Positions 19,161-42,019 of a stretch of DNA of 60,920 nt are shown here, in pieces. Location: IMG/VR virus record IMGVR_UViG_2744054872_000005, one strand, 5' to 3'. This DNA comes from a virus. Its lineage: Duplodnaviria; Heunggongvirae; Uroviricota; Caudoviricetes. Numbering within the stretch: the stretch's first letter is position 1; each line of letters starts with the position of its first letter. Made by a program: the position numbers and the translations under genes. The notes under the pieces were generated by a model, which was not told where the DNA came from, ran no database searches, and worked only from the letters and a program-made list of their open reading frames with translations.

Positions 19161-20186
19161 TTACGCCAGTTGTACGGACACGAACGCATCAGGGTCAGCC
19201 AGCAGCATCAGCGGTGCTGACTGAATCATGGTGAACTCACGCGCCGGATCGCCGGTAGTCACCCAGTTTTTCGGGTAGCGGGCAGAGGCGTTAATACCTT
19301 CGCGCTGTGCGTCCGCATCCTGAATGCAGCCATAGGTGCGCAGACCGCGTGCCTGAGTGTTCCCCAGCACCATCGTGTTGTCCGGCAGGAAGTTCTTTTT
19401 GACGTCGTTTTCCACGTACTGTCCGGAATACACGACGATCGCCGTATCGCCATACATCCCCTTATAGGACACCGCTTCGCCCAGGTCTTTTACCGCTGTC
19501 TCCAGCTCGGAATTAGAGCCGCGACGGGTATCCAGCTTCTCCTTGACGGCTTTGAAGGAACGGAACAGCGCCCAGCCTTTCGGATCAAACACGATGATAT
19601 TCACCACACCGCTGGCGTTCAGCGCGTAGGCTTCGATATCGTCGGTCGGGTCATACGTGGACTTGTCACGCTTGCTCCACTCCGTACCGCCGGACTGCGT
19701 GATGTTGTTCGCCACACTGCGGCCCATATCCACTTCAACCGGATCGAAGGCTTCACCGGTCATGGTATATTTGCCCTTAAGCACGGCAGAAACGGCCTGC
19801 ATCTCTTCGACCTGAGCAATGGCCAGCTCTTCGTCTCGCATGTTCTGCAGGATGATGCGACGGCGGCGGTAAGCCGGGTCCGCCAGATTCTGTGGATCTT
19901 CATCCGGCAGGCGACGCAGGGTCATCTGCGGATTCACCTCATGCTTCGGCTTGACATATCCCGGTGTAAATTCAGAGGTGGAGCCGCCACGGGAGCGGAT
20001 AACCTCACCGGAAACAATCGGCGAAACGTACAGCGCCATGTTTACCAGTCCCGGAATTTGTGAGAGATAGACTTTCTCCGTGGTGAAGGGATAGCTCTCA
20101 CGGAAAAAGAGACGCAGAAACAGCGGATCAAACTTAAATTTCTTCTCATTTGCCGCCAGCAGCTGGGCGGTTGTGTACATCGACAT
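19161..20186 (-). CDS. E: major capsid protein E
   Basis: Near-identical to lambda gpE from MSMYTTAQLLAANE. Confidence 0.97.
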   Translation of the reverse strand: MSMYTTAQLLAANEKKFKFDPLFLRLFFRESYPFTTEKVYLSQIPGLVNMALYVSPIVSGEVIRSRGGSTSEFTPGYVKPKHEVNPQMTLRRLPDEDPQNLADPAYRRRRIILQNMRDEELAIAQVEEMQAVSAVLKGKYTMTGEAFDPVEVDMGRSVANNITQSGGTEWSKRDKSTYDPTDDIEAYALNASGVVNIIVFDPKGWALFRSFKAVKEKLDTRRGSNSELETAVKDLGEAVSYKGMYGDTAIVVYSGQYVENDVKKNFLPDNTMVLGNTQARGLRTYGCIQDADAQREGINASARYPKNWVTTGDPAREFTMIQSAPLMLLADPDAFVSVQLA

Positions 20187-20241
20187 AAAAAAATCCCGTA
20201 AAAAAAGCCGCACAGGCGGCCTTTAGTGATGAAGGGTAAGG

Positions 20242-20574
20242 TTAAACGATGCTGATTGCCGTTCCGGCAAACGCGGTCCGTTTTTTCGTCTCGTCGCTGG
20301 CAGCCTCCGGCCAGAGCACATCCTCATAACGGAACGTGCCGGACTTGTAGAACGTCAGCGTGGTGCTGGTCTGGTCAGCAGCAACCGCCAGAATGCCAAC
20401 GGCAGCACCGTCGGTGGTGCCATCCCACACAACCAGCTTACGGGTGGAGGTGTCCAGCATCAGCGGGGTCATTGCAGGCGCTTTCGCACTCAATCCGCCG
20501 GGCGCGGTTGCCGTATGTGCCGGGTCACTGTTGCCCAGCGGCTGGTAATGGGTAAAGGTTTCTTTGCTCGTCAT
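20242..20574 (-). CDS. D: head decoration protein D
   Basis: Near-identical to lambda gpD from [12 protein letters not shown]. Confidence 0.97.
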
Positions 20575-20583
20575 AAACATCCC

Positions 20584-21903
20584 TTACACTGGTGTGTTCA
20601 GCAAATCGTTAACGGCATCAGATGACGGGTTACCTGCAGCCAGCGGTGCCGGTGCCCCCTGCATCAGACGATCCAGCGCAGTGTCACTGCGCGCCTGTGC
20701 ACTCTGTGGTGCAGCTGCCAGAATGCGGCGGGCCGTTTCCACGGTCATACCGGGGGGTTCGGCCAGCACGCGTGCCTGTTCTTCGCGTCCGTGAGCCTCC
20801 TCACAGTTGAGGATCCCCATAATGCGGCTGTTTTCTGCCGCAACCGCTGCGGTGATCTGCGCGTTCACATCCGGCTGCGCCGCGCTGGCGTTTTTGCCCT
20901 CCGTCGCTTGCACCACGCCAGTAACGTCAGCCTGCGAAGCAGTGGCTGAAACAGTTGTTGATTGAGTCTCTTTGGTCATTCGCCCTCCTGAGAGACGGGA
21001 TTTACGTGTATCCAGTGCATCACGCATGACGGTGATCGCATCGGTACTGTTAACAAGTTCATCAGCCAGTCCGGCATCAATGGCCTCCTGACCGCTGTAC
21101 ACTGCAGCCTCGGTATCCAGCACAGCCTGCACGGACAGGCCGGTATATGCCGATACCTTCTGTGCAAACATCCGGCGAGTTGCATCCATCCGGGACTGCA
21201 GTGTTTCCCGGACATCATCCGGTAGATGGCTGTAGGGGTTGCCATCCACCTTATGGCTGCCGCTGTAAATCAGCGTGATTTCCACGCCCTGTTTCTCCAG
21301 CGCAGCGCCGTAATTACTGTGAGCCATCATGACGCCGATGGAGCCTGTCCGGGCGGTCTGCGTGACCAGACGCCGGGAGGCGGCACTGGCAAGCAGCTGA
21401 CCTGCACTGCAGTTCATGTCGTTGGCCAGCGCCCATACCGGTTTTATGTCACGCACACGGGCGATGATGTCAGCGCAGTCAAATGCCCCCGCCACCATCC
21501 CGCCGGGCGTGTCCATATCGAGCAGAATGCCGTCCACCATCGGATCGCTGGCAGCCTGTTGCAGACGGGCGATAATGCCGTTGTAACCGGTCATCCCCGA
21601 ATGCGGCTGCAGCGCCCGCGTCCGGTTGACCAGCGTGCCGGAAACCGGCAGCACGGCGATGCCGTTCATGACCTGATAACTGCGGGCCTGTCGTGGTCCG
21701 TCATCATCACCGGATAACGCCAGCGTCGCGGGTGTCTCCGGGGCAGTCAGGCTGTCACCGGACACCGCATCTGTCAGGCGGCTGATCCCAAGCTGGCCTG
21801 CTAGCGCACAAAAGAAAACCCGCGCATAGGCGGGTTCAAGCATCAGCGGCTCATTAAAGGCCATGCTGGCAATATGCGGGAGATTACGCAGCTCTGCTGT
21901 CAC
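20584..21903 (-). CDS. C: capsid assembly protease C (with nested scaffold Nu3)
   Basis: 439 codons from a GTG start (VTAELRNLPHIASMAFNE); 20-nt overlap with the end of B as in lambda. Confidence 0.9.
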   Translation of the reverse strand: MTAELRNLPHIASMAFNEPLMLEPAYARVFFCALAGQLGISRLTDAVSGDSLTAPETPATLALSGDDDGPRQARSYQVMNGIAVLPVSGTLVNRTRALQPHSGMTGYNGIIARLQQAASDPMVDGILLDMDTPGGMVAGAFDCADIIARVRDIKPVWALANDMNCSAGQLLASAASRRLVTQTARTGSIGVMMAHSNYGAALEKQGVEITLIYSGSHKVDGNPYSHLPDDVRETLQSRMDATRRMFAQKVSAYTGLSVQAVLDTEAAVYSGQEAIDAGLADELVNSTDAITVMRDALDTRKSRLSGGRMTKETQSTTVSATASQADVTGVVQATEGKNASAAQPDVNAQITAAVAAENSRIMGILNCEEAHGREEQARVLAEPPGMTVETARRILAAAPQSAQARSDTALDRLMQGAPAPLAAGNPSSDAVNDLLNTPV

Positions 21904-22663
21904 TCTTCTCCTCCTCTGTTGATTGTCGCAGCCCGGATTCAAATGCCGCAGCCGCCCAGGCTGGCGGTTTAAGACCGGCTGCGCGGCGCTCCATCGTTTC
22001 ACGGACCTGCTGGGCAAAAATTTCCTGATAGTCGTCGCCGCGTTTTGCGCACTCTTTCTCATAGGTGCTCAGTCCGGCTTCTATCAGCATCACCGCTTCC
22101 TGTACTTCTTTCAGACCATCGATGGCCATACGACCGGAGCCTATCCAGTCACAGTTCCCCCAGGCACTGCGGGCTTCCTGAAAACTGAAGCGTGCTTTTG
22201 AAGGTAACGTCACCACGCGGCGAGCGATGGCCTCTTCCAGCCAGCACAGAAACATCTGGCTCGCCTGACGGGATGCGACGAATTTTCGCCGCCCCATAAA
22301 GTACGCCCACGACTCGTTCGCACTGGCCCGTGCCGTGGAGTAGCTCATCTGGGCGTAATTCCGGGAAAGCTGCTCATACGAGACACCCAGCCCGGCAGCG
22401 ATATACCGCAACAGTGACTGCTCAAACACGGAGTAGCCGTTATCCGTGTCCTGAGCCGTCTGCAGGTTCAGTGAGTCCCCCGGCATCAGGTGCGGCACTT
22501 TTGCGCCTCCCAGACGGACCGGTGCTGCGGCGTAATACGCGGCAATTTCACCAATCCAGCCGGTCAGCTTGTCCCGCTGCTCCTTACTGTTCGCGCCCAG
22601 AATAAAATCCATCGCTGACTGCGTATCCAGCTCACTCTCAATGGTGGCGGCATACATCGCCTT
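21884..22663 (-). pseudogene. B: portal protein B, 3' fragment (about residues 292-533), separated from its 5' part by the island
   Basis: Encodes ...KAMYAATIESELD... through the lambda gpB C-terminus; upstream of codon K the sequence is unrelated island DNA. Confidence 0.9.
22656..22663. repeat. left copy of 8-bp direct repeat ATCGCCTT (island attL core or target duplication)
   Basis: Identical octamer at 33480-33487; removing the island and one copy rebuilds an uninterrupted gpB reading frame ...SAIVKAMYAAT.... Confidence 0.85.
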
Positions 22664-22736
22664 TATGAAAAGACAGGAAAAAATAAAATTTAAAAACAGT
22701 ACATTACGAATGCTCAGACCTATCGTTTAAAGGAGT

Positions 22737-22758
22737 CGCAATACACACTGCAATACAC
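22737..22758 (+). repeat. two direct copies of GCAATACAC (candidate integrase arm-type sites, attL side)
   Basis: tcGCAATACACacTGCAATACACg; same motif three times at 33298-33350. Confidence 0.6.
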
Positions 22759-23694
22759 GATTATTTATAAGATGAGCGGCATCCGTCATAAAGCTGGTGG
22801 ATGCTTTTTCTATGCATATATGCACAGTTTTAGTGGGCGTTAATGTCGATATAGGGATCCCCATATCGAGATTGGATACCTGGCTTTTTTCCGGTTAACC
22901 TTTAATCAGGCTGGTGGGCTTTACCTGTTTTGTATGAGTGGTCATCATGACCATGTCATAACAAAAACCCCATATTCGTGGTTTTTCTGTGTCGGGGCTA
23001 TTCTGCTGTTGCCGTGCTGGTGGATATTCTCCGGTATGCGACTCCCCATATCGGCATCAGGCCCACCAGCGTGAAGCGTTTTTCATTTTTCGCGGGTATA
23101 AAAAATCGATGGGGCTGGCAGTCCGGAAGACGTCAGGTCACAGGGATTTGACCCGCCCCTCCCTGTGCATGAGCACAATAAGTAACCGAAGGCGGAATTC
23201 CGCCCTCGGTACTCACATATGAGAAACGATATTTCTTCCACAGATACCCTTTATTTGGGTATCGCGAGTAAGCCCCAAAATCTGGGTGTTACTCTTACTA
23301 CCCAAACTACGGGTAGTTTCCGTAGTTTCATGGTCGAGTTGCAGATCTGCAACTCACCCACCCGCCAACCCATTTTTGGGCCGTCGGGAATATCAACAAG
23401 TTAGCACAGAAATAACTCAGGCAGATACAAAACTCAACTTTGAGCTTTGCTTATTATTCAGTTGGTTAACATCCCTCAAAACTGAGGACTGTACCCAAAG
23501 CTATTTTTATAGCTCCGGCCTCAGCCGTTGGCTGTTCCCGAAAATATCAGTCAGTTACGTTAACCGCTAATTTCTGCCTTTGGTGTGAATACTGTCGCTT
23601 TAACCTACGGTAATTGTTCTGCCTCGGTGCGTGTCACCGCCGTAACCGCGCCAGTAAACCCCACAGATTCGTGGTTTTCCTGAATATCAGGAAT

Positions 23695-23979
23695 CTACCG
23701 CCGCAACCGTTCCGGTTTCTTCCACTGGTAAGTATTTTTCGCGCTCTCCCTCCGTTGTTGAGAACGGCGACGGTATGCCAGCAACTCAAGGACTCTGATC
23801 CGTATGTCGCGCATATCCACGCCGTTAAGCTCGATACCGTCACGGCGCATCATCTCAGCCACCACACGCGCGTAATTTTCGGCTATCACGCTGTCCGGCT
23901 GCGTGGCCTCCTGTTTGCTTGATGGTTGTTTGATTCCGGTAACGCGGCGGATTAATCCCAGCAATTCAGATTCTGTCAT
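23695..23979 (-). CDS. hypothetical protein (94 aa), last gene of island, 11 nt downstream of the TerS-like gene
   Basis: Charged, helical-looking ORF tightly coupled to the TerS-like gene; no recognisable domain. Confidence 0.45.
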   Translation of the reverse strand: MTESELLGLIRRVTGIKQPSSKQEATQPDSVIAENYARVVAEMMRRDGIELNGVDMRDIRIRVLELLAYRRRSQQRRESAKNTYQWKKPERLRR

Positions 23980-23990
23980 AGTGCGCTACG

Positions 23991-24542
23991 TTACTTGTCT
24001 TTATTCGGCTGCAACTTATCCGGCACATTTCCGGTAGTTTCCATCAGGTAATCAGCCAGTATCTGCGGGAGGTTGTCGTCAACTCCGGCACTGGCATTAC
24101 AGGCTTTAGCCACTTCCTTTTTAAGTCCATCCAGCATAGCCGGAGTCATCTGTGGGAAGCGCCTTTGCATGGTAAGCGGCAGGCTGTCCATGATAGATGA
24201 AATCTGACTCGCCAGTTTGGAAAGAACATACATACAAAACTCTGTATCAATAACGTCGCCGCGTTCGCGCTCGTTTTTAAGCTCCTGCGCTTCTGCCTGT
24301 GCTGTCAGTAATCTGATCCTGACGCGTAAAAGTTCATCGTCATCAATATCGCCCGTTTCGTTTGTAATCTGGCTAATTGCATTGTTAACCCGATTATCTA
24401 TTACACTGGCAACATCATAGAATGCCTCACGGCCCTTACGCTCGACGGGAATCACTCCCCACTTATCAAACGCAGTGGCGCTTACACGGCAACTTTTTGC
24501 CATGTTTTTTTTGTTCATCAGGTGCAATTTCATTGATACCAC
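23991..24542 (-). CDS. small terminase subunit homologue (lambda Nu1-like) encoded by the island
   Basis: 183 aa; C-terminal region aligns by eye with lambda Nu1 (e.g. LTAQAEAQELKNERERGDVIDTEFCMYVLSKLASQISSIMDSLPLTMQRRFP vs LTRAQADAQELKNARDSAEVVETAFCTFVLSRIAGEIASILDGIPLSVQRRFP); N-terminal wHTH region is divergent. Confidence 0.8.
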   Translation of the reverse strand: MVSMKLHLMNKKNMAKSCRVSATAFDKWGVIPVERKGREAFYDVASVIDNRVNNAISQITNETGDIDDDELLRVRIRLLTAQAEAQELKNERERGDVIDTEFCMYVLSKLASQISSIMDSLPLTMQRRFPQMTPAMLDGLKKEVAKACNASAGVDDNLPQILADYLMETTGNVPDKLQPNKDK

Positions 24543-24644
24543 AACTTAATTACTGTTTCAGGTTGGTGTATTGATTGTATTTTTCTCTTCTTATTCATAG
24601 AGATAGAGCGAACAACAAAACCACCACCAGCACCCGAAAAAGGC

Positions 24645-24710
24645 TCATAAATAGCGAAAACCCGCGAGGTCGCCGCCCCGTAACCTGTCGGATCGCCGGA
24701 AAGGACCCGC
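24645..24710 (-). other. island cos site: 66-bp exact copy of helper cosN and flanking sequence (cosN GGGCGGCGACCT at 24667-24678, minus strand)
   Basis: Identical to 37110-37175; sequence toward the island TerS gene (cosB side) is unrelated to the helper cosB. Confidence 0.85.
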
Positions 24711-24734
24711 CAGCCAGAACGGGCCCTAATTTCA

Positions 24735-25118
24735 TCAACCAATCAACTTATAGCGACCATCCCGTGCATTGCGACGTACACGCTCAATCTTGAGGCATAG
24801 CGCCGCACCTGGCTTTTTTGGGACAGGTACGCGGCAATATTCAGAAGCGCGAGGAATATTATTTATCCAGTCGATCACTTCACTTAAATACCAGGCCTTA
24901 CGCCCTTCCGTAACCTGCACTCGCTCCGGGAACTCTCCACTAGCCTCAAGGTTTAGCAGTGTACGCCGACTCAGGGTTGTAATTTCCATCACCTGATTCA
25001 TATCAACAAGGCGCTCGCTTAAACACATTTTGTCAGCGATAGCTTTTAATTCCTCTACAGCTGGATTCGGGTACATCATTTCGGCAATTGGCTTAAGGTC
25101 ATTGTAATCATTCTGCAT
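24735..25118 (-). CDS. AlpA-family HTH protein (second copy, 127 aa) in the island morphogenesis module
   Basis: C-terminal MEITTLSRRTLLNLEASGEFPERVQVTEGRKAWYLSEVIDWI resembles the AlpA/phage regulatory HTH. Confidence 0.55.
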   Translation of the reverse strand: MQNDYNDLKPIAEMMYPNPAVEELKAIADKMCLSERLVDMNQVMEITTLSRRTLLNLEASGEFPERVQVTEGRKAWYLSEVIDWINNIPRASEYCRVPVPKKPGAALCLKIERVRRNARDGRYKLIG

Positions 25119-25129
25119 TGTATCCCCCT

Positions 25130-25459
25130 TTACACACGAGCCAGCGGCTGAACAGAAATACCTGAGCCAACAAACGCTGCAACCTTTACTGACAGTTCTT
25201 TAACAGACTCAGGCCAGTTCAGAGCATCAACATTTAAGACACCTGTCTTATAGACCTGAGCCTGTGTTTTTTTCGCGGTGTCGATTTGTACAGCGGAAAC
25301 ATAAACCGCTTTACCTACGCTCGAACCATCCCATACCACCAGTGCACCATGCATCAGTGGCGTAAATGCAGGAATTACCCCTTTATTAGCTGAAAATATC
25401 CCCAACGTAGTAACCAGTGCTTCAGTGCCAGCCATGAGTTCAGTGTAATGAGTAGCCAT
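25130..25459 (-). CDS. head decoration protein homologue (lambda gpD-like), island-encoded
   Basis: 109 aa; shares TPLM, VWDG and C-terminal AF.G..IS motifs with gpD. Confidence 0.7.
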   Translation of the reverse strand: MATHYTELMAGTEALVTTLGIFSANKGVIPAFTPLMHGALVVWDGSSVGKAVYVSAVQIDTAKKTQAQVYKTGVLNVDALNWPESVKELSVKVAAFVGSGISVQPLARV

Positions 25460-25468
25460 TGCTCCCCC

Positions 25469-26515
25469 TTAACCAATGCGAACGGTAACAAAACGATTGA
25501 TGCGGGCCGGTATTGGCTGTGGTGCAGAGTGCGTTTGTACGTACTCAATAGCCGGATCTCCAGGCACAATGTAGTTTTTCGGTGCGAGTTCGGCTTTAGT
25601 CAGCCCCATTCGGATTAGCTCCGGATCCTGAATACCGCCATAAGCGACAATCCCCTGAAGAGCCGTATTGCCAAGCACCATCAAATCAGGATCAAGGAAA
25701 TGTTTTTCAGTTCCGTCCTCGTCGGTATAACGCCCGCTGTATACAACAATCGCAACATCGCCCATATACCCTTTAAAACTCACCGAATCACCAAGGTCTT
25801 TAAGGGCCGTTTCCAGTTCGGAATTAGAACCACGGCGGGTATCCAGAGCCTCTTTTATCGCTCTGAATGAACGGTATTTCTTCCATACATTACCGCCCAT
25901 AATGATGATATTAGTGACGCCCTCACTAAATTCTGCGTAGCTCTCAATATCATCATTTGGATCAAAAGTTTCTTTATCCTTACCTGACCACTCAGCACCG
26001 CCAGACTGAGTGATGATATTTTGTGGTTTAATATTCCAGTCCAGTTCATAACGTTCAATACCATCGCCTTCAATGATATTTTTCCCCGTTGTGATTGCCT
26101 GAACAGCAAGCCATTCAATACGTGCACGTATAGCTTTAGCCTGATTTACAATCGCCTGTTTAACTTTAATATTACGCGCCCCAAAAGCATTGTATTGTTC
26201 AGGTGATACACCAGCAGGGCGCACAGCTAACTTATTTGGATCAATGCTGCTTTTCGGTTTCATATAGCCAGGGCGAATTGTTTTTGATTCGTATCCCTCA
26301 TCTCGTGAAACTTTACTGCCCACCATAGGAGAGCAAAACGCCGCGATCGGGATATTTGGATCGTCGATCGTATCAAGAATAATGTCTCTCGATTCAAACA
26401 TTACCGAGCGAGTGAAAAACAAACTGGTAAACAACGCATTTAATTTTTTTTGCACATCTTCAGCATTAGCCACCTGCACAAGCTGTGTAGGCGAATATAA
26501 ATCAACCATACTCAT
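25469..26515 (-). CDS. major capsid protein homologue (lambda gpE-like), island-encoded
   Basis: Clear collinear similarity to gpE (TQSGGAEWSGKDKETFDPNDDIESYA, ...AIKEALDTRRGSNSELETALKDLGDSVSFKGYMGDVAIVVYSG); start chosen at MSMVDLYSPTQL with AAGAGG RBS. Confidence 0.85.
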   Translation of the reverse strand: MSMVDLYSPTQLVQVANAEDVQKKLNALFTSLFFTRSVMFESRDIILDTIDDPNIPIAAFCSPMVGSKVSRDEGYESKTIRPGYMKPKSSIDPNKLAVRPAGVSPEQYNAFGARNIKVKQAIVNQAKAIRARIEWLAVQAITTGKNIIEGDGIERYELDWNIKPQNIITQSGGAEWSGKDKETFDPNDDIESYAEFSEGVTNIIIMGGNVWKKYRSFRAIKEALDTRRGSNSELETALKDLGDSVSFKGYMGDVAIVVYSGRYTDEDGTEKHFLDPDLMVLGNTALQGIVAYGGIQDPELIRMGLTKAELAPKNYIVPGDPAIEYVQTHSAPQPIPARINRFVTVRIG

Positions 26516-26726
26516 CCTCTTTACATTCATTACAAATAATTGTGAATATATTCTATTACCGATGTCTGCTATGCGAATACATGCAACCAAGTGCAATGTT
26601 GTATAAAATCTGCCGTGACAACTTCAGTGCTGATAATTCGTGTTAATGTATTTACTTCCTTTGGTCGGGATTTATGTAGCATGCCGGAAAATCTATTTTC
26701 TTCCGGCATTTTTTTATTTGCAGAAT

Positions 26727-27149
26727 TTAAAACGGTATATTATCGCCGTACGGATCATCATTCCCCGACTGTTGTTTTGCCCTGTTCAGTGCGTCAGTAG
26801 CCTGGCCCTGTTGACCTTTTTTGCCGCCCGGTCGCGCCGTTCTGGCACTGATTACACTGTCTGCGATAACCTGCCAGCACTGCCGCGTTTCGCCGTTCTG
26901 GCCTGTCCACTGGCTTACCTGCATGTTACCCGCCACGCTCACCAGTTCGCCTTTGTGGTGTTTTGCCAGTGCGTCGGCCTGTCTGCCAAACGCCAGGACG
27001 GATAACCACATCGTCGCCGTTCCGTCATCTGCCTGGCTGCACGGAAGTGGGACCGCCATACTCGCCATCGTCATTTGTGTACCCTTGCTGGTGGTCTTTA
27101 ACTGCGGGTCAGCCACCAGCCGCCCGTAAGCCGCTATCTGTGCTGTCAT
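26727..27149 (-). CDS. ssb: single-stranded DNA-binding protein (SSB-like)
   Basis: OB-fold-like N-terminus, Gly/Gln-rich linker and acidic C-terminal tail ending DNIPF (compare SSB DDDIPF). Confidence 0.55.
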   Translation of the reverse strand: MTAQIAAYGRLVADPQLKTTSKGTQMTMASMAVPLPCSQADDGTATMWLSVLAFGRQADALAKHHKGELVSVAGNMQVSQWTGQNGETRQCWQVIADSVISARTARPGGKKGQQGQATDALNRAKQQSGNDDPYGDNIPF

Positions 27150-27391
27150 GCTGTCTGCTCTCCGGTTTTAACGTTGATGGTTGTCACCTGTTCCGCTTCG
27201 GCAATCTCCCGTTCTGTCAGCGTGGCAAAGTTTGCAGCTGCCGTTGTCATGAATGCGCTAATCAGTTCGGGATGTGCTTTCGCATATCCTTCCCCGGCGT
27301 TGCGGTCGATGATTTTTATCGACACCCTTAACCAGTGTTCCGTCAAATCAAGGGCGTGCGATTGTGATTTTTTTGTGTGCTTCGCTGTCAT
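27146..27391 (-). CDS. hypothetical protein (81 aa)
   Basis: ORF between the iteron region and ssb with overlapping stop/start. Confidence 0.4.
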   Translation of the reverse strand: MTAKHTKKSQSHALDLTEHWLRVSIKIIDRNAGEGYAKAHPELISAFMTTAAANFATLTEREIAEAEQVTTINVKTGEQTA

Positions 27392-27442
27392 AGGCTTTAT
27401 CTCACAGCAGTAAATTAAAATTTTTGCGTTTTAACCCTTCAC

Positions 27443-27664
27443 CTGTTCACCTTTTGATATTTTATCTTTTAATTCATAATGTTAAGGGGTGAACAGTTTC
27501 ACAAAAACTATTCACCAACTGTTCACCACTGTTCACCCTTGAAGCTCAATAAACAATCAAAAAGGTGAACAGTGAATAGTTTGGTGAACAGTTCATAAAT
27601 AACTGTTCACCCTATAACATACTGATACAAAAGATATTTATGACAGGGTGAACAGTGGTGAACA
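27443..27664. repeat. iteron cluster: at least 9 copies of GGTGAACAG / CTGTTCACC in both orientations (candidate island replication origin)
   Basis: Copies at about 27443, 27488, 27519, 27529, 27564, 27584, 27603, 27647 and 27656 in an AT-rich stretch just 3' of the primase gene. Confidence 0.75.
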
Positions 27665-27678
27665 GTTATTCCATAAGT

Positions 27679-29511
27679 TTAATTTTTGCTATCGTCATTA
27701 GTGACCGATACACATGATGGCATCCAGTCTTCTGATTCCTCCGTCAGTGTCACGTTTGAACGCAAACCGTGCTTCGTTTTCCGTTTCATATACTCCCTGC
27801 CATATTCCGCCATTGCCCCCGGCATATCTTTACCGAAGCGCGTCAGTGTTACAGGTTTACCAAACCCATGTGCCCTCATATAAGCCAGATAGGCATGATA
27901 GAGATACCTGCGTGGGCTGAATGGCACAATTTCAGCATTACCCACTAACAGGCCATCACACATTACCGACGCCATGAGATAGCCGCAGAAGTCCACCAGC
28001 GAATCCCCCTCTCGCTTTATCGCCAGTGCTTCTTCAGATTTCTGCTGCTCATATAACAGGCGTCTGGCTTCGTCCTGGTCAGCAAACCGTGTAAGCAGAT
28101 GGCGAATCACTACCGCCAGCTCACCTTCTATTTTTTCCGCCAGCATTGGATCGCGTTCGTTCTCCGGTACAACTTCCGAAAAATTGAATATCACCCGACG
28201 ACGTGAGATCCCCCCGCTGCGGTCACTGAATGACATGGCGTTATTGTTAACCGCCAGCACTACTGCCGGAATACGCGTTGAGTAGGGGGCTTTGTGTTTC
28301 GGGTCAATTGCCACCTTGTCACCGCCTGTAATAGCCTTAATCCCTGCCCCATCACCAGCGTAGCGGGTCATATCCGGCATGATAATCAGCGAAAAGCCAA
28401 CCACTAACGCGCGTTCCCTTGCATCTTCCAGCGCCTTCATGCTTGCCGATACTGTGTTGGCCTTACCCGCCAGCATGGTGCAAATCTCCGCCATCACGCT
28501 TTTACCACTTCCCCCTGGACCTGTTACCTCAATGAATAACTGCCAGTCGTACCGGTTCGCCAGCACCATGAATAATGCAGCCAGTACGCGATCCGCCTTG
28601 CGGTCATTCTCAGCCACCGAACGGCGTAACCACTTCCAGAAATTCGGCGCATGTGTTGCCAGCGTTTCCCCCTCTGCTGGTGGGCTGAAAGGTAATTCAC
28701 TGGCAATTAACAACCAGTCGTTTTTGTTATGCTCCCGAAAATTACCTGTTCTGGTATCAAATACCCCGTTACTGAATCCAATCAGGTTACGGGCTGTATT
28801 CCCCATAACAGGCAAACTTAACTTCATGGTATCGACCGCCGATTTAATGGCGTTCTGCGAATAGCTGATCTCCGCATCAATGAAAATCTGCGCCATAGCT
28901 CGCTGTAATTCTTTATCCTGTACTGGCTCCCATACAACGCCGTTGTAATGGTGAACAGTGTCAGAGTCAGCATGAATCGCCAGTTCACCGCCATAATGTG
29001 CCAGGAGAACTTCGCCGCGTTGACTTGCTCCCATCTGGTTAAGCGCCAGTGATGAAGCGTTATCGTCTTTTACCCGCTCTTTTTTCTTTACAGGCAGTTC
29101 AACTACCTTTTTCTTTTCCGCCTGCTCTGCCCGTTCACGTTCCAGATATTCGCGCCAGTTCTCCCGTTTCTGGCTGTGCATTCCTTCAGGATAATAATCA
29201 GCATCCCTGACACCTGCCGCTGCCAGTTTCTGCCCGATGGTATTAACAAGCCCCGGACGCAATAACCCCGCCTGATAGAGACGCACGCGATAGCGTCCGT
29301 CCGGTACGATTTGCAGGTTGTCCAGTTCGGCAAGTTGTTGCTCTCCAAGCCAGACAGGTGGCACGTTATCGCCAGCCAGTCGCCCGTCCTGTTCCTGCCA
29401 CTGATTCGCATGTGCCCACGCATCACTACCCGCAAAAATGATGACTTCCGTCATTTTGTCACGCGGCTGGTATTTTAAATTTGGCGCTTTTTTCATTTCT
29501 GCTCTCTCCAC
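27679..29511 (-). CDS. primase/replication initiation protein (P4 alpha or PICI Pri-Rep-like) with P-loop NTPase domain
   Basis: 610 aa; Walker A GPGGSGKS; placement next to int-alpA and directly upstream of the iterons. Confidence 0.75.
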   Translation of the reverse strand: MERAEMKKAPNLKYQPRDKMTEVIIFAGSDAWAHANQWQEQDGRLAGDNVPPVWLGEQQLAELDNLQIVPDGRYRVRLYQAGLLRPGLVNTIGQKLAAAGVRDADYYPEGMHSQKRENWREYLERERAEQAEKKKVVELPVKKKERVKDDNASSLALNQMGASQRGEVLLAHYGGELAIHADSDTVHHYNGVVWEPVQDKELQRAMAQIFIDAEISYSQNAIKSAVDTMKLSLPVMGNTARNLIGFSNGVFDTRTGNFREHNKNDWLLIASELPFSPPAEGETLATHAPNFWKWLRRSVAENDRKADRVLAALFMVLANRYDWQLFIEVTGPGGSGKSVMAEICTMLAGKANTVSASMKALEDARERALVVGFSLIIMPDMTRYAGDGAGIKAITGGDKVAIDPKHKAPYSTRIPAVVLAVNNNAMSFSDRSGGISRRRVIFNFSEVVPENERDPMLAEKIEGELAVVIRHLLTRFADQDEARRLLYEQQKSEEALAIKREGDSLVDFCGYLMASVMCDGLLVGNAEIVPFSPRRYLYHAYLAYMRAHGFGKPVTLTRFGKDMPGAMAEYGREYMKRKTKHGLRSNVTLTEESEDWMPSCVSVTNDDSKN

Positions 29512-29792
29512 GCGGCAATCATATTTTTCAGTTCCTGTAGTTTTTTATCCACATCCACACGTGACACATGGTTATTTCTGGAAGTCGGGATTTTCCGCCG
29601 GAATCTGCAAATAAAGATCTCCACGTTCAGCGAACTAAGAAATGAATAGCCATCACGGATAAAATACACACGGTCAAACATCAGTTCTTTTACCGTTACT
29701 CTGTTACCGTTCTTATCCAGATAAATAGCGCCGGGGATAATTTGGGGGTGTGCATAACCGCTGGCAGTCAAGCCAGATAAATACGTTCTCAT
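29493..29792 (-). CDS. hypothetical protein (99 aa)
   Basis: Overlaps primase start by 19 nt; no recognisable domain. Confidence 0.45.
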   Translation of the reverse strand: MRTYLSGLTASGYAHPQIIPGAIYLDKNGNRVTVKELMFDRVYFIRDGYSFLSSLNVEIFICRFRRKIPTSRNNHVSRVDVDKKLQELKNMIAAWREQK

Positions 29793-29798
29793 GATTAT

Positions 29799-30119
29799 TT
29801 ATCCCCGATTTGAATCAGTATTCGCTTTCTTTATAGCATTTAATGCATCTGTGGCATTTTCAATGGTGCACCGTAACGAAATATCAAAATGTCCAAGCAT
29901 TGCCAGTAACAAACCGATATTACCCATATCAATGCGCATGGCCTTTTCGTCATATTCCTCATTTTCTGACGCATGCCACATCAGGCTACCAATTGACGCA
30001 ACAGCCATTGATATATTGTCAGTAGCCCCATCCGCAGCGGAATAAACCTTTTTAGCAATATCATGCTCACAGTTAAAATGCGGATTAATCAGGTACTGGT
30101 AATTTGACATATCAGGCAT
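29799..30119 (-). CDS. hypothetical protein (about 106 aa from MPDMSNYQ)
   Basis: Internal ATG at 30119 has AGGGGG 8 nt upstream; the listed ORF extends upstream to 30236 through the operator region. Confidence 0.4.
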   Translation of the reverse strand: MPDMSNYQYLINPHFNCEHDIAKKVYSAADGATDNISMAVASIGSLMWHASENEEYDEKAMRIDMGNIGLLLAMLGHFDISLRCTIENATDALNAIKKANTDSNRG

Positions 30120-30404
30120 GGCACACCCCCTGGCGAATACGGGCGGCGAATACAGCAACACAACCGGACGGGCAGCGGTTACGCGCTTCACGTTCCGTCC
30201 AGGCGGTGACGTGGATGATTTGAGATTCTCCGGCACTCAGTGCCAGAAAACGCCACACAAAGGCCGTTTGTGTGTGTACAAGGTGTGGGGTATGCTGTCT
30301 TACAGCCATAATCGTTACTCCAGTTAACGGTTTGGTTAGAAGCCCCGTTACTGCTCCAACAGTGCGGGGCTTCGTCGTTTCAATTGCTGAATTGCATGTA
30401 TCAG

Positions 30405-30475
30405 CCCTTGTGGTATTCAGATTACATTTTGGTGAATACCATTTCAAGTCTTTTTTGGTATTCACTTTTGTATTA
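30405..30475. promoter_or_regulatory. divergent promoter/operator region with three GGTATTCA / TGAATACC repeats
   Basis: tggtattcag, tggtgaatacc and tggtattcac between the divergent replication operon and the DUF3950-like gene. Confidence 0.55.
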
Positions 30476-30508
30476 CACTGCATCCCGTTATTAATCGGAG
30501 GTGCAAAC

Positions 30509-30814
30509 ATGTCCACGAGTTCTGTTAACAATAAATCACAGCAACTGAATGCCAGATTTCCACATGAAGTAGTGAGTGGCATTGAGGCATCCCTACAGCC
30601 AGGGGAAACTAAAGCGAATTTTATAGTTACGGCTGTACGCGGTGAGATCGCCAGCCGCCAAGCAGAAGGCAGCGGAGAAAATCCCCTTGTGTCGTCACTG
30701 GATGCCCTGGCTAAGGTCGAACAAATCGGCATCAAAGCCGCCGAGGAGATCGGGCAACTCATCACCGTCGCGCGTGAAGAACTCCAGCGACGCAAGGTCA
30801 AAGAGCATGAATAG
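30509..30814 (+). CDS. DUF3950/YlcI-like putative DNA-binding protein (101 aa), candidate island regulator
   Basis: GGAGGTG RBS; N-terminus MSTSSVNNKSQQLNARFPHEVVSGIEASLQPGETKANF aligns with the helper YlcI MSTKNRTRRTTTRNIRFPNPMIEQINIALDQKGSGNF. Confidence 0.55.
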   Translation: MSTSSVNNKSQQLNARFPHEVVSGIEASLQPGETKANFIVTAVRGEIASRQAEGSGENPLVSSLDALAKVEQIGIKAAEEIGQLITVAREELQRRKVKEHE

Positions 30815-30871
30815 CCAATATCAGCGCCATAGTTTGAGGAACGCAGGCGCATTGCTTTACAGGACAGCACC

Positions 30872-31051
30872 ATGAGCGACACAGAATCAACCAAAACACC
30901 ATCACCAACTCGTAAGAGACGACGCAAAAATATAGCGCATGAACATGAATCAGAAAGATTCGCACCTTGTTCGTTTGCTCTTGAGAAATTCCTTAAAGAG
31001 CACAGGAAAAAGCTCTCGTTGCAAACCTTGGAACGAACCAAATCTGACTGA
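30872..31051 (+). CDS. hypothetical small basic protein (59 aa)
   Basis: ORF downstream of the DUF3950-like gene, followed by two terminator hairpins; below the 60-aa cut-off of the ORF track. Confidence 0.3.
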   Translation: MSDTESTKTPSPTRKRRRKNIAHEHESERFAPCSFALEKFLKEHRKKLSLQTLERTKSD

Positions 31052-31118
31052 TCACATTGCCCACCAGCCGCAAATGTGGCATTGTTGGTGATGCGTTCAA
31101 GTTTAGTGTGTATCCATT

Positions 31119-31148
31119 GGCGACCGCCCCCGGTCGCCTTTGTTTTGT
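31119..31148 (+). terminator. rho-independent terminator (first of two)
   Basis: ggcgaccg-ccccc-ggtcgcc followed by tttgttttg. Confidence 0.6.
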
Positions 31149-31724
31149 CACTGAATGCGGTTACCAAAGTAAAACTCAGGCTGATATTCACGTATCAGCC
31201 TTTTTTCTTCTTCCTCCAGCTCACGCTTTTTGCGCTTACATGCCTGTAGCTCCCTCCCCTTCTCGCTGGCACTTATTTGATATTGCTCTTTACGGCGGGA
31301 AAAATCCTGTAATGCACCCCACGGGATACCATAAGCCCCCGTTTTTCTGATACCTGGTATCACATTTCTGAATACCCAGTTACTGAAACGATGGGCGAAC
31401 GTGCCAGGAGTAACAGCTTTCCGACTTCTGGCGATTAGTTTGTAGAACCCTGACTCGCATACCGTTCGCATTGTTTGATTTCCACCTGGGGTGGGTATTA
31501 CACTCCCCCTTTTCATCATCATCGAGACGGCGTAACGCAACCTTGTGATCAACAATTTCCAGCGCAGCGCACACGTCAACGGCAACAAACCACGGATCGC
31601 CGTTCACATACACCACGCGAACGCTCACACCATCAAAGCGCAGAACGACCAGATCACGAATATCACAGAATTTTTTCACTGGACGAGCGTACCCCTTGCC
31701 CGTCACGGCAATATTTTTATTCAT
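31148..31724 (-). pseudogene. Bro-N domain (antirepressor-like) gene interrupted by a +1 frameshift in a G5/C5 run
   Basis: ORFs 31380-31724 and 31148-31588 together read ...PWFVAVDVCAALE...DDDEKG // SVIPTPGGNQTMRTVCESGFYKLI...NVIPGIRKTGAY; frame change at ccccc 31504-31508. Confidence 0.65.
31178..31207 (+). terminator. rho-independent terminator (second of two)
   Basis: aggctgata-ttcacg-tatcagcct followed by ttttttt. Confidence 0.6.
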
Positions 31725-31778
31725 CGCGTTTTACCCTATAGACAAAAACCCCTCGTGATGAGGGGCGTTATTTACTGG

Positions 31779-32036
31779 TTATTGCTGTGTTGTTTTTCCA
31801 GGTTTCCATCCAGGATGCCACTCACCACGGATCCATGCCTGAACCTCTGAAAGTCGATACCCTGCAGCACGTTCACCGATCTTGATACGTCGCGGGAATT
31901 TACCTGCCTGCTCCATTTTCCAGCGTGTTGAGTTTGCCAGCGTGGTAAGTGCTATGCACTCTTTTTCACGAATGAACCGATCAATGTCCTTCATTGTGCG
32001 CAAATCGTTTTCATCAACAAGAGAATAAATTGCCAT
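31779..32036 (-). CDS. alpA: AlpA-family transcriptional regulator/excisionase
   Basis: 85 aa HTH ...GKFPRRIKIGERAAGYRLSEVQAWI; immediately downstream of int. Confidence 0.8.
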   Translation of the reverse strand: MAIYSLVDENDLRTMKDIDRFIREKECIALTTLANSTRWKMEQAGKFPRRIKIGERAAGYRLSEVQAWIRGEWHPGWKPGKTTQQ

Positions 32037-32037
32037 A

Positions 32038-33279
32038 TCACACCACCTCTTTATTAAGCTCGATAACGTTGTTGTTAAATCCTGCTATCGTATTAAGGTA
32101 ATTAACCCACATATTAAGCACCTCAAGTTTTTTCTTTATATGCCTGCTTTTATTGTAAACACCAGCAACCCCTTTCACTTTATGACCTAAAAGAAGTTCG
32201 ACAATATAAGGATCCGCCCCCATATCATTAAGCGTAGTGGAAAATGTGCGCCTGAAATCATGTATGCACCACAAGCCATTAGTATCATGACCAAGACGCC
32301 TGCATATTCTGTTTGCAGCCCCTGTTATTGTCGCCCTTTGCAAAGCACAACCGACAACATAACCGCGATTTTTTGTTTCTGCGTAAAGATTAACGATCCA
32401 TTGTTTTATTCCGTCAGGAACAGGCCTTACTATAGCCTCCTTGTTTTTGCTGTGCTCTTTTGGGACTGTCCATACCCAGTTTTTTAAATCCCATTCGTCC
32501 CAGGTGGATAGCCTCGCCTCCTGCTGTCGGCAACCAAACACCAGGCAGATAACCATTATTCTTCGGTTATATATTGATGACAGAGTTAGCAAATTATTAC
32601 CGTAAGCATAAGACCATACATCAGCGGTTTCATTGATATTAAGAACGCGATCCCTTATACCGGATGAGCGCCCGACATAACTTACGTTAATATCTCCAAA
32701 GGGATCGCACGCGATGTATTGCCTGACGCGACAAAAACGCAACGCCTGTTTGATATCAAGAAAAATTGCACCAGACATAACAGGCGCATTTTTTTTGATC
32801 CTGTCAAAGACGGTAAGCCATGTGTGTAATTTGCACTGTTCTATAGCCATATCACCGATATAGGGGAAGATATGCTTTTCAAATCGTTTTATTAAATATT
32901 CATGCTCTTTTCTGGCTGTTGTGGCGTGATTATCGTACCAGTAAAACAGCGCATCCCTTACGGTCACTGGTTGCATGGTTTTTTCGGCAGCAAGTTTTAT
33001 TTGCCTGCGTGGGTCCAGATTTTCAGCCAGCCATTCACGGCACTGATCACGCATGCGCCTGGCTGTTGCAAGAGACATATCAGGATAGCGCCCAAGTGTA
33101 AGCCATACCGGAGGGGATTCCCTGCCACCAAGACGATAGTAAAAAACAAAGCTGATCCCCCCAACCATGCTTACACGCACAGACAACCCGCGCCCATCCG
33201 CTATTGTTTTTTGTTTGTCCTGCCGTTTTCCGACAAGACTCTTTAACAGTTTGTCACTGAGTTTGTTTTCAATAGCCAT
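32038..33279 (-). CDS. int: tyrosine integrase (P4-type)
   Basis: 413 aa; N-terminal arm-binding-type domain and C-terminal catalytic region (HDFRRTF...LLGHK...Y); adjacent to the island right junction. Confidence 0.9.
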   Translation of the reverse strand: MAIENKLSDKLLKSLVGKRQDKQKTIADGRGLSVRVSMVGGISFVFYYRLGGRESPPVWLTLGRYPDMSLATARRMRDQCREWLAENLDPRRQIKLAAEKTMQPVTVRDALFYWYDNHATTARKEHEYLIKRFEKHIFPYIGDMAIEQCKLHTWLTVFDRIKKNAPVMSGAIFLDIKQALRFCRVRQYIACDPFGDINVSYVGRSSGIRDRVLNINETADVWSYAYGNNLLTLSSIYNRRIMVICLVFGCRQQEARLSTWDEWDLKNWVWTVPKEHSKNKEAIVRPVPDGIKQWIVNLYAETKNRGYVVGCALQRATITGAANRICRRLGHDTNGLWCIHDFRRTFSTTLNDMGADPYIVELLLGHKVKGVAGVYNKSRHIKKKLEVLNMWVNYLNTIAGFNNNVIELNKEVV

Positions 33280-33297
33280 TAAAAGCCCTCAAGAGAT

Positions 33298-33350
33298 TTG
33301 CAATACACACCCATCCCGATCGCCAATTTGCAATACACATTGCAATACAC
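33298..33350 (+). repeat. three direct copies of TGCAATACAC (candidate arm-type sites, int side)
   Basis: tTGCAATACACac ... tTGCAATACACat-TGCAATACACaa, between int and the junction. Confidence 0.6.
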
Positions 33351-33479
33351 AAAACCGCGAAAAACTGGAAGAGTGATGAACGGTCATCAAAAGTATGGAA
33401 AACGACATTCCAGACGCAGCAAGGGTTTCAGTGGAGTTGGCGAACGATGCGGGCAACTACGGTGAGATGATAGACATAA

Positions 33480-36408
<2,929 letters not shown>

Positions 36409-36434
<26 letters not shown>

Positions 36435-36954
36435 TCAGCAACCCCGGTATCAGTTCATCCAGCGCGGCTGCTTTGTTCATGGCTTTGATGATATCCCGTT
36501 TCAGGAAATCAACATGTCGGTTTTCCAGTTCCGGAAAACGCCGCTGCACCGACAGGGGGATCCCGTCGAGAATACTGGCAATTTCACCTGCGATCCGCGA
36601 CAGCACGAAAGTACAGAATGCGGTTTCCACCACTTCAGCGGAGTCTCTGGCATTTTTTAGCTCCTGTGCGTCGGCCTGCGCACGCGTAAGTCGATGGCGT
36701 TCGTACTCAATAGTCCCTGGCTGGAGATCTGTCTCGCTGGCCTGCAGCAGTTCTTCAACTTCCCGGCGCAGCTTTTCGTTCTCAATTTCAGCATCCCTTT
36801 CGGCATACCATTTTATGACGGCGGCAGAATCATAAAGCACCTCATTACCCTTGCCACCGCCTCGCAGAACGGGCATTCCCTGCTCCTGCCAGTTCTGAAT
36901 GGTACGGATGCTCGCGCCGAAAATGTCAGCCAGCTGCTTTTTGTTGACTTCCAT
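36409..36954 (-). CDS. Nu1: terminase small subunit Nu1
   Basis: 181 aa, MEVNKKQLADIFGASIRTIQNWQEQGMPV... as lambda Nu1. Confidence 0.97.
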
Positions 36955-37109: not shown

Positions 37110-37175
37110 TCATAAATAGCGAAAACCCGCGAGGTCGCCGCCCCGTAACCTGTCGGATCGCCGGAAAGGACCCGC
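37110..37175 (-). other. helper prophage cos region (cosN GGGCGGCGACCT at 37132-37143, minus strand), cosB toward Nu1
   Basis: Matches the lambda cohesive-end sequence and flanks by recall; 178 nt upstream of Nu1. Confidence 0.9.
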
Positions 37176-37342: not shown

Positions 37343-37537
37343 ATGTCAACGAAGAACAGAACCCGCAGAACAACAACCCGCAACATCCGCTTTCCTAACC
37401 CAATGATTGAACAAATTAACATCGCTCTTGATCAAAAAGGGTCTGGGAATTTCTCAGCCTGGGTCATTGAAGCCTGCCGTCGGAGACTAACGTCAGAAAA
37501 GAGAGCATATACATCAATCCAAAGTGATGATGAATAA
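37343..37537 (+). CDS. ylcI: DUF3950 family protein (YlcI-like)
   Basis: 64 aa MSTKNRTRRTTTRNIRFPNPMIEQINIALDQKGSGNFSAWVIEACRRRL, as in DLP12/lambdoid ylcI by recall. Confidence 0.7.
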   Translation: MSTKNRTRRTTTRNIRFPNPMIEQINIALDQKGSGNFSAWVIEACRRRLTSEKRAYTSIQSDDE

Positions 37538-37899: not shown

Positions 37900-38193
37900 A
37901 TGAAAAAAATGTTGTTTTCTGCCGCTCTGGCAATGCTTATTACAGGATGTGCTCAACAGACGTTTACTGTTGGAAACAAACCGACAGCAGTAACACCAAA
38001 GGAAACCATCACCCATCACTTCTTCGTTTCGGGAATTGGACAGGAGAAAACTGTTGATGCAGCCAAAATTTGTGGCGGCGCAGAAAATGTTGTTAAAACA
38101 GAAACCCAGCAAACATTCGTAAATGGATTGCTCGGTTTTATTACTTTAGGCATTTATACTCCGCTGGAAGCGCGTGTGTATTGCTCACAATAA
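37900..38193 (+). CDS. bor: Bor lipoprotein (serum-resistance associated)
   Basis: MKKMLFSAALAMLITGCAQQ lipoprotein signal; lambda Bor-like; opposite strand to Rz as in lambda. Confidence 0.9.
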   Translation: MKKMLFSAALAMLITGCAQQTFTVGNKPTAVTPKETITHHFFVSGIGQEKTVDAAKICGGAENVVKTETQQTFVNGLLGFITLGIYTPLEARVYCSQ

Positions 38194-39646: not shown

Positions 39647-40042
39647 CTAACCTCGCATGTCAAAGCCAGATTTCTGAAAATCTCTGTAGACTTCCGGATT
39701 GTTGAAGGCCGGAAATTTGGCTTTATGAGCTGCGGACTTTATCGCTTCGCAATAGGCTTTATCACCGTTACTGGTAGATATTTTTAACGCCGTGCCATCC
39801 TGAGAGAATTCCATATGCAACCTGCATTTTTTCCCTTTCCAGTTATGCGGCTCATCAAGTTTGGCATTAATTGCAGCTCTGATTCCCCGCGCTTGCGCCC
39901 CCCATTCATCCTGATCATCCCAGCGTCCTGAACTGCAACTACCTGTAGCAGTAGTTTTGTGGCAATCTGAAGGGTGTAAAGGTGTGCATCCCGCAACAAA
40001 ACCGACCCAAAAAGTCAACATAACGATTTTCTTTAATCCCAC
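39647..40042 (-). CDS. lipoprotein with TolA C-terminal (domain III)-like domain, paralogue 1
   Basis: Lipobox VAGC; C-terminal region resembles TolA domain III (KKCRLHMEFSQDGTALKISTSNGDKAYCEAIKSA...PEVYRDF). Confidence 0.6.
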   Translation of the reverse strand: MGLKKIVMLTFWVGFVAGCTPLHPSDCHKTTATGSCSSGRWDDQDEWGAQARGIRAAINAKLDEPHNWKGKKCRLHMEFSQDGTALKISTSNGDKAYCEAIKSAAHKAKFPAFNNPEVYRDFQKSGFDMRG

Positions 40043-40192
40043 TTCTTGCTCCTCAATCCATTAAAATCTCAGCAATAGTAGTTGTTACGTCCGCCACTGG
40101 CTCAGAGCTGACTATCCGCTAAATTTAGCTCAGTGCCGTAGCTGTGTCAGAACAAACCTAAGCCGAAACCGTTTATTACAAAACAATAAATA

Positions 40193-40621
40193 TCAGGGTT
40201 TAAAATCCAGCACCCCATTTTGAAATACTTTATATACTTCCGGCGAAGGGGGGGCAGGTATATCAGCATTCTTTATCGCATTCATCGCTTCACGACATAA
40301 ATCGAGGTCTCCACTTTCTCTTTTAACCTCCAGTAGAAGGCCATTCGGGGCCATATGCATTCTCAGTGTACACTCTTTTCCTGAATACTTACTCGCATCC
40401 CCGAACTGTTTTTCGATGGCGCTCTTGATTTGATGGGCATACAGACGGATATTCTCACTAACATCAGAAGTACGTTCAGATGAACTCACATACTGTGTCT
40501 CTATTGCTTTATCGGAGTAATATGATGTACGGTCATGATAATTTGTCGATACAGCATCAGTGCACCCGATAATAATCCCACTAATAATCAACGTAAGAAT
40601 TGATGCGCTACGAAAACCCAT
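40193..40621 (-). CDS. lipoprotein with TolA C-terminal (domain III)-like domain, paralogue 2
   Basis: Lipobox IIGC; YAHQIKSAIEKQFGDASKYSGKECTLRMHMAPNGLLLEVKRESGDLDLCREAMNAIKNADIPAPPSPEVYKVFQNGVLDFKP closely matches recalled E. coli TolA C-terminus. Confidence 0.7.
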   Translation of the reverse strand: MGFRSASILTLIISGIIIGCTDAVSTNYHDRTSYYSDKAIETQYVSSSERTSDVSENIRLYAHQIKSAIEKQFGDASKYSGKECTLRMHMAPNGLLLEVKRESGDLDLCREAMNAIKNADIPAPPSPEVYKVFQNGVLDFKP

Positions 40622-41940: not shown

Positions 41941-42019
41941 TAGAAACTCTTCTAACGTCAGGCATAAAAAGCCCATCGTTATGATGAATTTACCACAGAT
42001 TTCGGAAAAATCAACCTTG

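Follow-up and report, generated by a model that had tools for sequence, protein, structure and literature searches.

Does a satellite that lies inside the late operon of its own helper prophage respond to a protein signal from the helper, or to the helper transcription that runs into it? The question is raised by a 60,920-nt stretch of DNA from a tailed phage (Caudoviricetes; IMG/VR record IMGVR_UViG_2744054872_000005; hereafter the window), in which an island of 10,816 bp (22664-33479, minus strand) splits the portal gene B of a lambdoid prophage. The initial annotation of the window had proposed that late transcription dependent on the antiterminator Q reads through the island genes, which could couple island excision and morphogenesis to helper late gene expression, and our analysis supports this coupling in part. 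Judged from the arrangement of genes and signals, late transcription of the helper very probably continues passively into the island. The overall explanation that fits best, to which we assign a probability of about 0.6, is an embedded satellite in which read-through of late transcription would trigger the satellite's own excision. That read-through is the main trigger of island induction is a more tentative claim, to which we give slightly less than an even chance.

Results

The island is flanked by two 8-bp AAGGCGAT blocks on the minus strand, one at its far side (22656-22663) and one at the side of its integrase gene int (33480-33487). The island edges that had been placed at 22664 and 33479 proved exact, as they enclose precisely the bases between the two AAGGCGAT copies. 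The 5′ part of B (34309-33480, minus strand) ends after the second base of codon 277, with codons 1-276 complete, and the 3′ part (22655-21884, minus strand) completes B when joined to it. The insertion point is residue 277, and the island supplies no replacement end; the interrupted frame enters the island for 17 codons and stops at 33428-33430. A truncated portal protein of 293 amino acids (aa) could be made from the 5′ part before excision.

When the island was removed in silico (34309-33480 joined to 22655-21884), an uninterrupted open reading frame (ORF) for a 533-aa portal protein was restored. The restored product matched Pfam Phage_portal_2 at residues 33-400, which span the insertion residue. 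Further, a 121-nt stretch over the restored junction was 100% identical to B of phage lambda (J02459, 3612-3732). The restored attachment sequence attB is AAGGCGATGTATGCC.

The order of genes along the minus strand was as the initial annotation had described it, namely Q, lysis genes, cos, Nu1, A, W, the 5′ part of B, the island, the 3′ part of B, C, D and E. Annotation and ORFs placed Nu1 at 36409-36954, A at 34509-36434 and W at 34306-34512, and C, D and E (19161-22062) lie downstream of the island, all on the minus strand. Therefore, with the island in place, only transcription that crosses the island can reach C, D and E. The island genes int, alpA and primase lie on the same strand as Q, Nu1, A, W, B, C, D and E, which is the orientation of a helper-embedded phage-inducible chromosomal island (HE-PICI). 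Co-orientation with the late operon had been claimed for the island genes as a whole; it holds for 14 of the 15 annotated genes, and the exception is a gene of the YlcI/YnfO family on the plus strand (30509-30814, by annotation).

The helper carries the parts of a lambda-type late operon, with Q, a candidate pR′, a pause-like element, a tR′-like terminator and late genes on one strand. The late antiterminator gene Q (42020-42841, minus strand) is intact and encodes 273 aa (Pfam Antiterm PF03589, E = 2.9e-54; annotated in the same way in near-identical records). The candidate late promoter pR′ (41975-42014, minus strand) has a -35 element TTGATT (42014-42009) that begins six bases past the Q stop codon, a 16-nt spacer, and TGnTAAATT with the -10 element at 41992-41987. 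A pause-like element, AACGAT, is located at 41980-41975, six nt past this -10 element. The pR′ of lambda has the same layout and the same spacing between the -10 and its pause-inducing element, and the succession of Q, pR′ and tR′ here is the canonical one. About 40 nt downstream of the predicted pR′ start is a compact intrinsic terminator resembling tR′ (41939-41913, stem 41939-41920, minus strand), in which AACCCGCCGCCGAGCGGGTT is followed by the T run TTTTATTG.

Further terminator-like sites were found within the helper late region. One is found just upstream of the holin gene, within the late leader (39521-39496, hairpin 39521-39504, minus strand; fold z = -2.79), and others occur next to cos (37029-36985), between D and E (20223-20204) and after E (19158-19141). 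Late transcription of the helper would thus already rely on a polymerase that resists terminators. RNA polymerase modified by Q is terminator-resistant. Because such a polymerase would already cross the hairpins of the helper, whether or not the island junction has a terminator would matter less than the initial annotation had assumed.

Minus-strand terminators were sought with two independent scans, a pattern scan and an RNAfold-based scan. The latter was too permissive, and from it we kept only hits confirmed by the pattern scan or compact GC-rich stems with a U run. As had been claimed for the right junction, the two scans revealed no minus-strand terminator between the B junction and the start of int, and a 231-nt RNA of the junction folded no better than shuffled sequence (z = -0.04). 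In addition, no recognizable sigma-70 promoter was found in the 200 nt before int, by scan or by eye. A split promoter that would face int only in the excised circle was considered and rejected; the candidate, a 9-of-12 match in the far arm (22789-22760), was too weak. The first genes that a polymerase would meet after the junction are int (33279-32038, minus strand), which encodes a tyrosine integrase (Pfam Arm-DNA-bind_3 and Phage_integrase), and alpA (32036-31779, minus strand; Pfam Phage_AlpA, E = 5.4e-14), the start of which at 32036 immediately follows the int stop at 32038.

The strong terminators inside the island had been assigned to the plus strand. Two such terminators do end a short plus-strand unit (31119-31138 and 31178-31201); the assignment was incomplete, as a canonical intrinsic terminator also lies on the minus strand directly after alpA (31766-31739, hairpin 31766-31748), where GCCCCUCAUCACGAGGGGU is followed by UUUUGU. 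This hairpin has a folding energy of -14.7 kcal/mol (z = -3.07) and is bidirectional, with the better U tract on the minus strand. The terminator is preserved in the island of isolate AHB3 (L002), which is 95% identical, and across about 61 complete genomes with the same alpA; for islands less closely related, similarity at the DNA level is limited to the coding core of alpA (about 70%). A polymerase modified by Q, being terminator-resistant, would also pass this terminator. Two very stable minus-strand hairpins with weak U tracts (23524-23482 and 23215-23179; z = -4.57 and -6.07, respectively) fall in the 1-kb non-coding tail of the island and may form the end of its own operon. The scan also revealed a promoter-like site at 26577-26550, ahead of the capsid gene.

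To place the island among known elements, we compared the window with complete genomes. It was 99.97% identical to Escherichia coli SCEC020022 (CP032892.1) and GZEC065 (CP048025.1). The element Eco5118.11.B_Phage_portal_2_241 is listed at CP032892.1/2404963-2415798 with the identity block aaggcgat and the helper Eco5118.60.proP (Tommasini, Mageeney and Williams, 2023; PMC10111431, supplementary table), and the int-side AAGGCGAT block of our island equals the block listed for it. Judging from these matches, the island is almost certainly an HE-PICI of the B:Phage_portal_2:241 site group. Like members of this family, it disrupts a late gene of a prophage (B, at codon 277) without a replacement sequence, and its zones follow the HE-PICI order, starting with int and alpA, continuing with BRO-N and with primase and SSB, and ending with capsid, decoration and small terminase (TerS) genes. 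Its integrase is 54% identical over the full length to that of 11capE, the founder HE-PICI (BLASTP E = 3e-170).

Further, co-oriented copies of the doubled tgTGTATTGCantgTGTATTGCa motif of HE-PICIs are present on both sides of the core, at 33330-33349 and 22738-22757. A repeat search found the first as a doubled TGTATTGC between the junction and int (33349-33330, minus strand), with a third half-site at 33307-33300 (minus strand), so that the zone extends over 33300-33349; the second copy, also from the repeat search, lies on the minus strand toward the island's far end. The copies of TGTATTGC between the junction and int are presumed to be arm-type sites. On one side, the centres of the half-sites lie 82 and 94 bp from that of the core; on the other, the distances are 138 and 150 bp. 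In the published attP, the doubled tgTGTATTGCantgTGTATTGCa motif flanks the core at 81 and 132 bp, each ± 2 (PMC10111431), and the slight offset depends on the way in which the distance is measured.

This int was found in 63 of 5,426 complete E. coli genomes, in 62 of which it is located at the int/B junction. About 3,200 of the 5,426 genomes possess an uninterrupted B, at which the query match breaks at the junction. Given this recurrent int/B junction, the co-orientation is not a product of chance. At least one other strain carries the same island group within a lambda-like prophage that is complete and includes cI, cro, O, P, N and QuuD. All 14 HE-PICI site groups share the orientation of the late genes (PMC10111431).

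Downstream of alpA, the Bro zone consists of a BRO-N domain gene (31148-31724, minus strand; Pfam and annotation), which is frameshifted in this copy. The gene is also frameshifted in GZEC065, and it is intact (579 nt) in the AHB3 island. The plus-strand unit (30509-31201) consists of the YlcI/YnfO-family gene, a 59-aa ORF (30872-31051) and the two strong plus-strand terminators. The YlcI/YnfO-family gene diverges from the operon of the icd-like and primase genes and could, from its position, encode a repressor of the island. The helper too has a small YlcI/YnfO-family gene opposite its late operon (37343-37537, plus strand; Pfam DUF3950).

The replication zone (27679-30321, minus strand) contains the icd-like gene, a hypothetical gene, a DUF4222 gene and the primase gene (29511-27679; Pfam D5_N/DUF5906/Pox_D5). 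Just downstream of the primase gene, repeat families of GGTGAACAGT iterons, some arranged as 29-nt palindrome-like units, occupy 27488-27671 and are the probable replication origin of the island. SSB is also encoded on the minus strand. The capsid and head decoration genes lie at 25130-26509 on the minus strand; the major capsid protein (26509-25469) is 41% identical to helper E, and the decoration protein is 38% identical to helper D. A second AlpA-family helix-turn-helix (HTH) gene (24735-25118, minus strand; Pfam Phage_AlpA, E = 7.6e-9) separates the decoration gene from the island cos and TerS gene; it has a counterpart in 11capE and might control the late zone after excision.

The helper cos core (37110-37175, minus strand) contains cosN, GGGCGGCGACCT, at 37143-37132, and the island has a cos of its own (24645-24710, minus strand) with cosN at 24678-24667. 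The two share an identical 66-nt block of the cosN region (island 24710-24645, helper 37175-37110), after which the island sequence is unrelated to the cosB of the helper. Directly downstream of its cos, the island encodes TerS (24542-23991, minus strand), a homologue of Nu1 by Pfam (Phage_Nu1) and BLASTP. It is 37% identical to helper Nu1 overall, the N-terminal, DNA-binding half being diverged and the C-terminal half conserved. The cos copy and the Nu1-like TerS suggest that the helper large terminase is redirected to the island cos.

Two other kinds of satellite were considered for the island and rejected. A P4-like satellite was dismissed as no psu, sid or delta capsid-size genes were present in the annotation or Pfam results, and an Rfam search for P4-type immunity RNA, a kind of RNA that occurs in some PICIs and would make transcription stop early, gave no match to C4 or isrK at the gathering threshold or at E ≤ 1. 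A capsid-forming phage-inducible chromosomal island (PICI) was dismissed as only homologues of capsid, decoration and TerS proteins were found, and no portal, protease or large terminase.

The helper is a lambdoid prophage on the minus strand at the ydfJ/rspB (Qin) locus and extends from ydfJ to rspB. It comprises, in order, int, xis, exo, dicB, an immunity region of the dicA type, replication genes, a 6-kb block of transporter and regulator genes, hokD, rusA, Q, two tRNA genes, lysis genes, cos, Nu1, A, W, the split portal gene B, C, D, E and the tail genes. From int through the tail fibre gene, the annotation marks no helper genes as broken apart from the portal fragments. A reading of the helper as a truncated remnant, based on the transporter and regulator genes after hokD, was rejected when genes for replication, immunity, dicB, exo, xis and int were found beyond this block.

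The block itself (45598-51854), between hokD and the replication genes, consists of ordinary-looking cellular genes for an MFS transporter, a gamma-glutamylcyclotransferase, a LysR regulator, a DUF2254 protein and a BCCT transporter. The RNAs that Rfam matched with more than the gathering score were IS009 RNA near the end of the tail-fibre region (3059-3257), STnc100 in the part of the late leader that separates the tRNAs from the lysis genes (40732-40922), sok beside hokD (44872-45046) and DicF in the early region (56114-56165). The two tRNA genes (41622-41876, Rfam) are located just downstream of pR′ and tR′. Two TolA-like genes lie between tR′ and the holin gene (39647-40621, minus strand), and a serum-survival lipoprotein gene of the iss/bor type lies between Rz and cos (about 37900-38193, plus strand).

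Discussion

The geometry of the locus, its intact parts and the restoration of B are observed in the sequence, and from them we infer each transcriptional and protein-function step of the following course of events. The island would have been inserted into B at AAGGCGAT by its own tyrosine integrase, with its orientation set by the att core. After prophage induction, Q would modify RNA polymerase at pR′, for which the promoter, the pause-like element, tR′ and an intact Q are all present. The modified polymerase would then traverse the lysis genes, cos, Nu1, A, W, the 5′ part of B and the junction, and enter int and alpA. Int and AlpA would excise the island, and AlpA would start the island's own program, as the example of the chromosomal PICI EcCICFT073 suggests. 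In EcCICFT073, overexpression of AlpA alone induces excision and replication (PMC6092414), and transcription of alpA in cis would therefore suffice as a trigger.

The modified polymerase would ignore the terminator after alpA and go on to transcribe the replication, capsid, decoration and TerS genes, followed by helper C to J. Excision restores the wild-type B, as seen in silico, and the portal protein would therefore become available, for both partners, only afterwards. The island would be packaged from its own copy of cosN with its Nu1-like TerS, into heads in which its E-like and D-like proteins are combined with the portal, protease, large terminase and tails of the helper.

Several points weigh against this course of events. 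Excision ends the link in cis, and the morphogenesis genes on the excised copy would therefore need promoters of their own. The terminator after alpA, the divergent regulator-like gene on the plus strand and the promoter-like site at 26577-26550 point to autonomous transcription units. Dependence on Q is deduced from homology. The immunity region of the helper is of the Qin/dicA type, the prophage may not be inducible, and the BRO-N gene is frameshifted in this copy. Further, no RNA or transcript data for any HE-PICI were found in the literature searched, and virions of the sister composite containing 11capE were not recovered by the authors who studied it (PMC10111431).

An alternative is that the island is induced in trans, as ordinary Gram-negative PICIs are, with a helper protein activating the alpA promoter and AlpA driving the island. 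Co-orientation would then serve to avoid head-on conflict and to keep C to J, on which the satellite relies, within reach of late transcription; every head or tail gene of the helper that lies downstream of B does require transcription across the island. The behavior of EcCICFT073 favors this alternative and counts against a trigger in cis, as induction of a helper phage is required for its alpA expression to rise and AlpA activates its own expression (PMC6092414). The unit boundaries inside the island (the terminator after alpA, the plus-strand terminators and the promoter-like site before the capsid gene) are also in keeping with it. However, the 200 nt before int contain no recognizable sigma-70 promoter, and int and alpA are the first genes that late transcription would meet, and nothing would halt the polymerase on the way. 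A polymerase modified by Q would transcribe alpA regardless of a signal in trans, and the two routes are not exclusive. We regard induction in trans as the leading explanation rather unlikely.

A stricter form of the read-through explanation is that the island acts as a sensor in cis of the Q-modified polymerase, the signal being the helper antiterminator acting in cis with no inducer protein acting in trans. As the integrated island has no recognizable promoter for int and alpA and has a conserved terminator after alpA, stray transcription would yield at most Int and AlpA, and only antiterminated late transcription would pass alpA into the Bro, replication, capsid and TerS genes. In a variant of this idea, the matching Q of a co-resident or superinfecting lambdoid phage would act at pR′. 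We consider this reading as a whole doubtful, a little less probable than induction in trans.

The weakest alternative is a dead-end composite, in which the insertion destroyed portal function in a prophage undergoing decay, both partners have lost expression and mobility, and co-orientation has no present function in this strain. The frameshifted BRO-N gene is consistent with it, as are the 6-kb transporter and regulator block, the early region of the Qin type with dicA, dicB and DicF, which in K-12 is part of a defective prophage, and the reports that many HE-PICI helpers look truncated and that virions were not obtained (PMC10111431). We consider it very improbable, because the int, alpA, primase, capsid and TerS genes and the island cos are intact, as are the two att blocks and the two doubled motifs, the split B is without decay (the restored ORF is intact and identical to lambda over the 121 nt of the junction), no other helper gene from int to the tail fibre is annotated as broken, and another strain harbors the same island group in a lambda-like prophage that is complete (cI, cro, O, P, N).

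The closest relative of the island is Eco5118.11.B_Phage_portal_2_241 (PMC10111431), which is the same element, with the same aaggcgat block, target position in B and orientation, and from which there is no substantive difference. The founder, 11capE (Eco567.11.E_Phage_cap_E_80, in E. coli NRG857c), is likewise embedded in a lambda-type late gene and oriented in the same direction as that gene. The two share the order int, alpA, antisense YlcI/YnfO-family gene, icd-like gene, DUF4222 gene, primase, SSB, capsid, decoration and AlpA-like HTH genes. Further, in the NRG857c sequence, 11capE has the doubled TGTATTGC motif before int and no terminator from the junction to int. In contrast to our island, 11capE targets the capsid gene E rather than the portal gene B, its late zone ends in antisense HEPN and DUF262 genes with no TerS, and the hairpin after its alpA is a different, AT-rich one.

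11capE is the only HE-PICI for which induction data are available (PMC10111431). In a time course followed by quantitative PCR and sequencing, the composite was excised at 1 h and replicated, and excision products of the satellite appeared only at 2 h (PMC10111431). This timing is in keeping with read-through. All non-hypothetical genes of 11capE are aligned with the surrounding late genes (PMC10111431, Discussion).

EcCICFT073 and other chromosomal Gram-negative PICIs (Fillol-Salom et al., 2018; PMC6092414) resemble our island in having alpA after int, a replicase of the primase type and a length of about 11 kb. They also share cos packaging by lambdoid helpers and the use of AlpA as the activator of the island cycle (PMC6092414). 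In contrast, these PICIs reside in chromosomal genes away from the helper, which they sense only in trans, whereas the present island lies within the helper late operon and interrupts an essential helper gene.

Regulated gene integrity, or active lysogeny, also splits a gene without supplying a replacement end and restores it by precise excision. Here, unlike in active lysogeny, the interrupted gene is a phage gene rather than a host gene, and it is the satellite that would benefit. A further parallel is stx of the 933W-type phages, a segment downstream of pR′ that is expressed by late transcription that is antiterminated by Q and resistant to terminators. However, stx is passive cargo, whereas the island is an independent mobile element, the first transcribed genes of which would excise it. 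The comparison with regulated gene integrity has also been drawn for HE-PICIs (PMC10111431).

The configuration, the exact element and the read-through idea are not new, as all were published in 2023; that helper late transcription continues into the co-oriented satellite was already proposed then, for 11capE (PMC10111431). What the present analysis adds is small and descriptive, namely the coordinates of the helper pR′ and tR′, the inventory of terminators and the terminator-free junction, together with the conserved terminator after alpA, the island copy of cosN and the Nu1-like TerS, none of which was described for this element in PMC10111431.

If late read-through is the trigger, the satellite would sense its helper by the helper's transcription rather than by a protein signal. 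The portal gene of the helper would then be held hostage until the satellite leaves, which would constitute a distinct, cis-acting form of phage parasitism.

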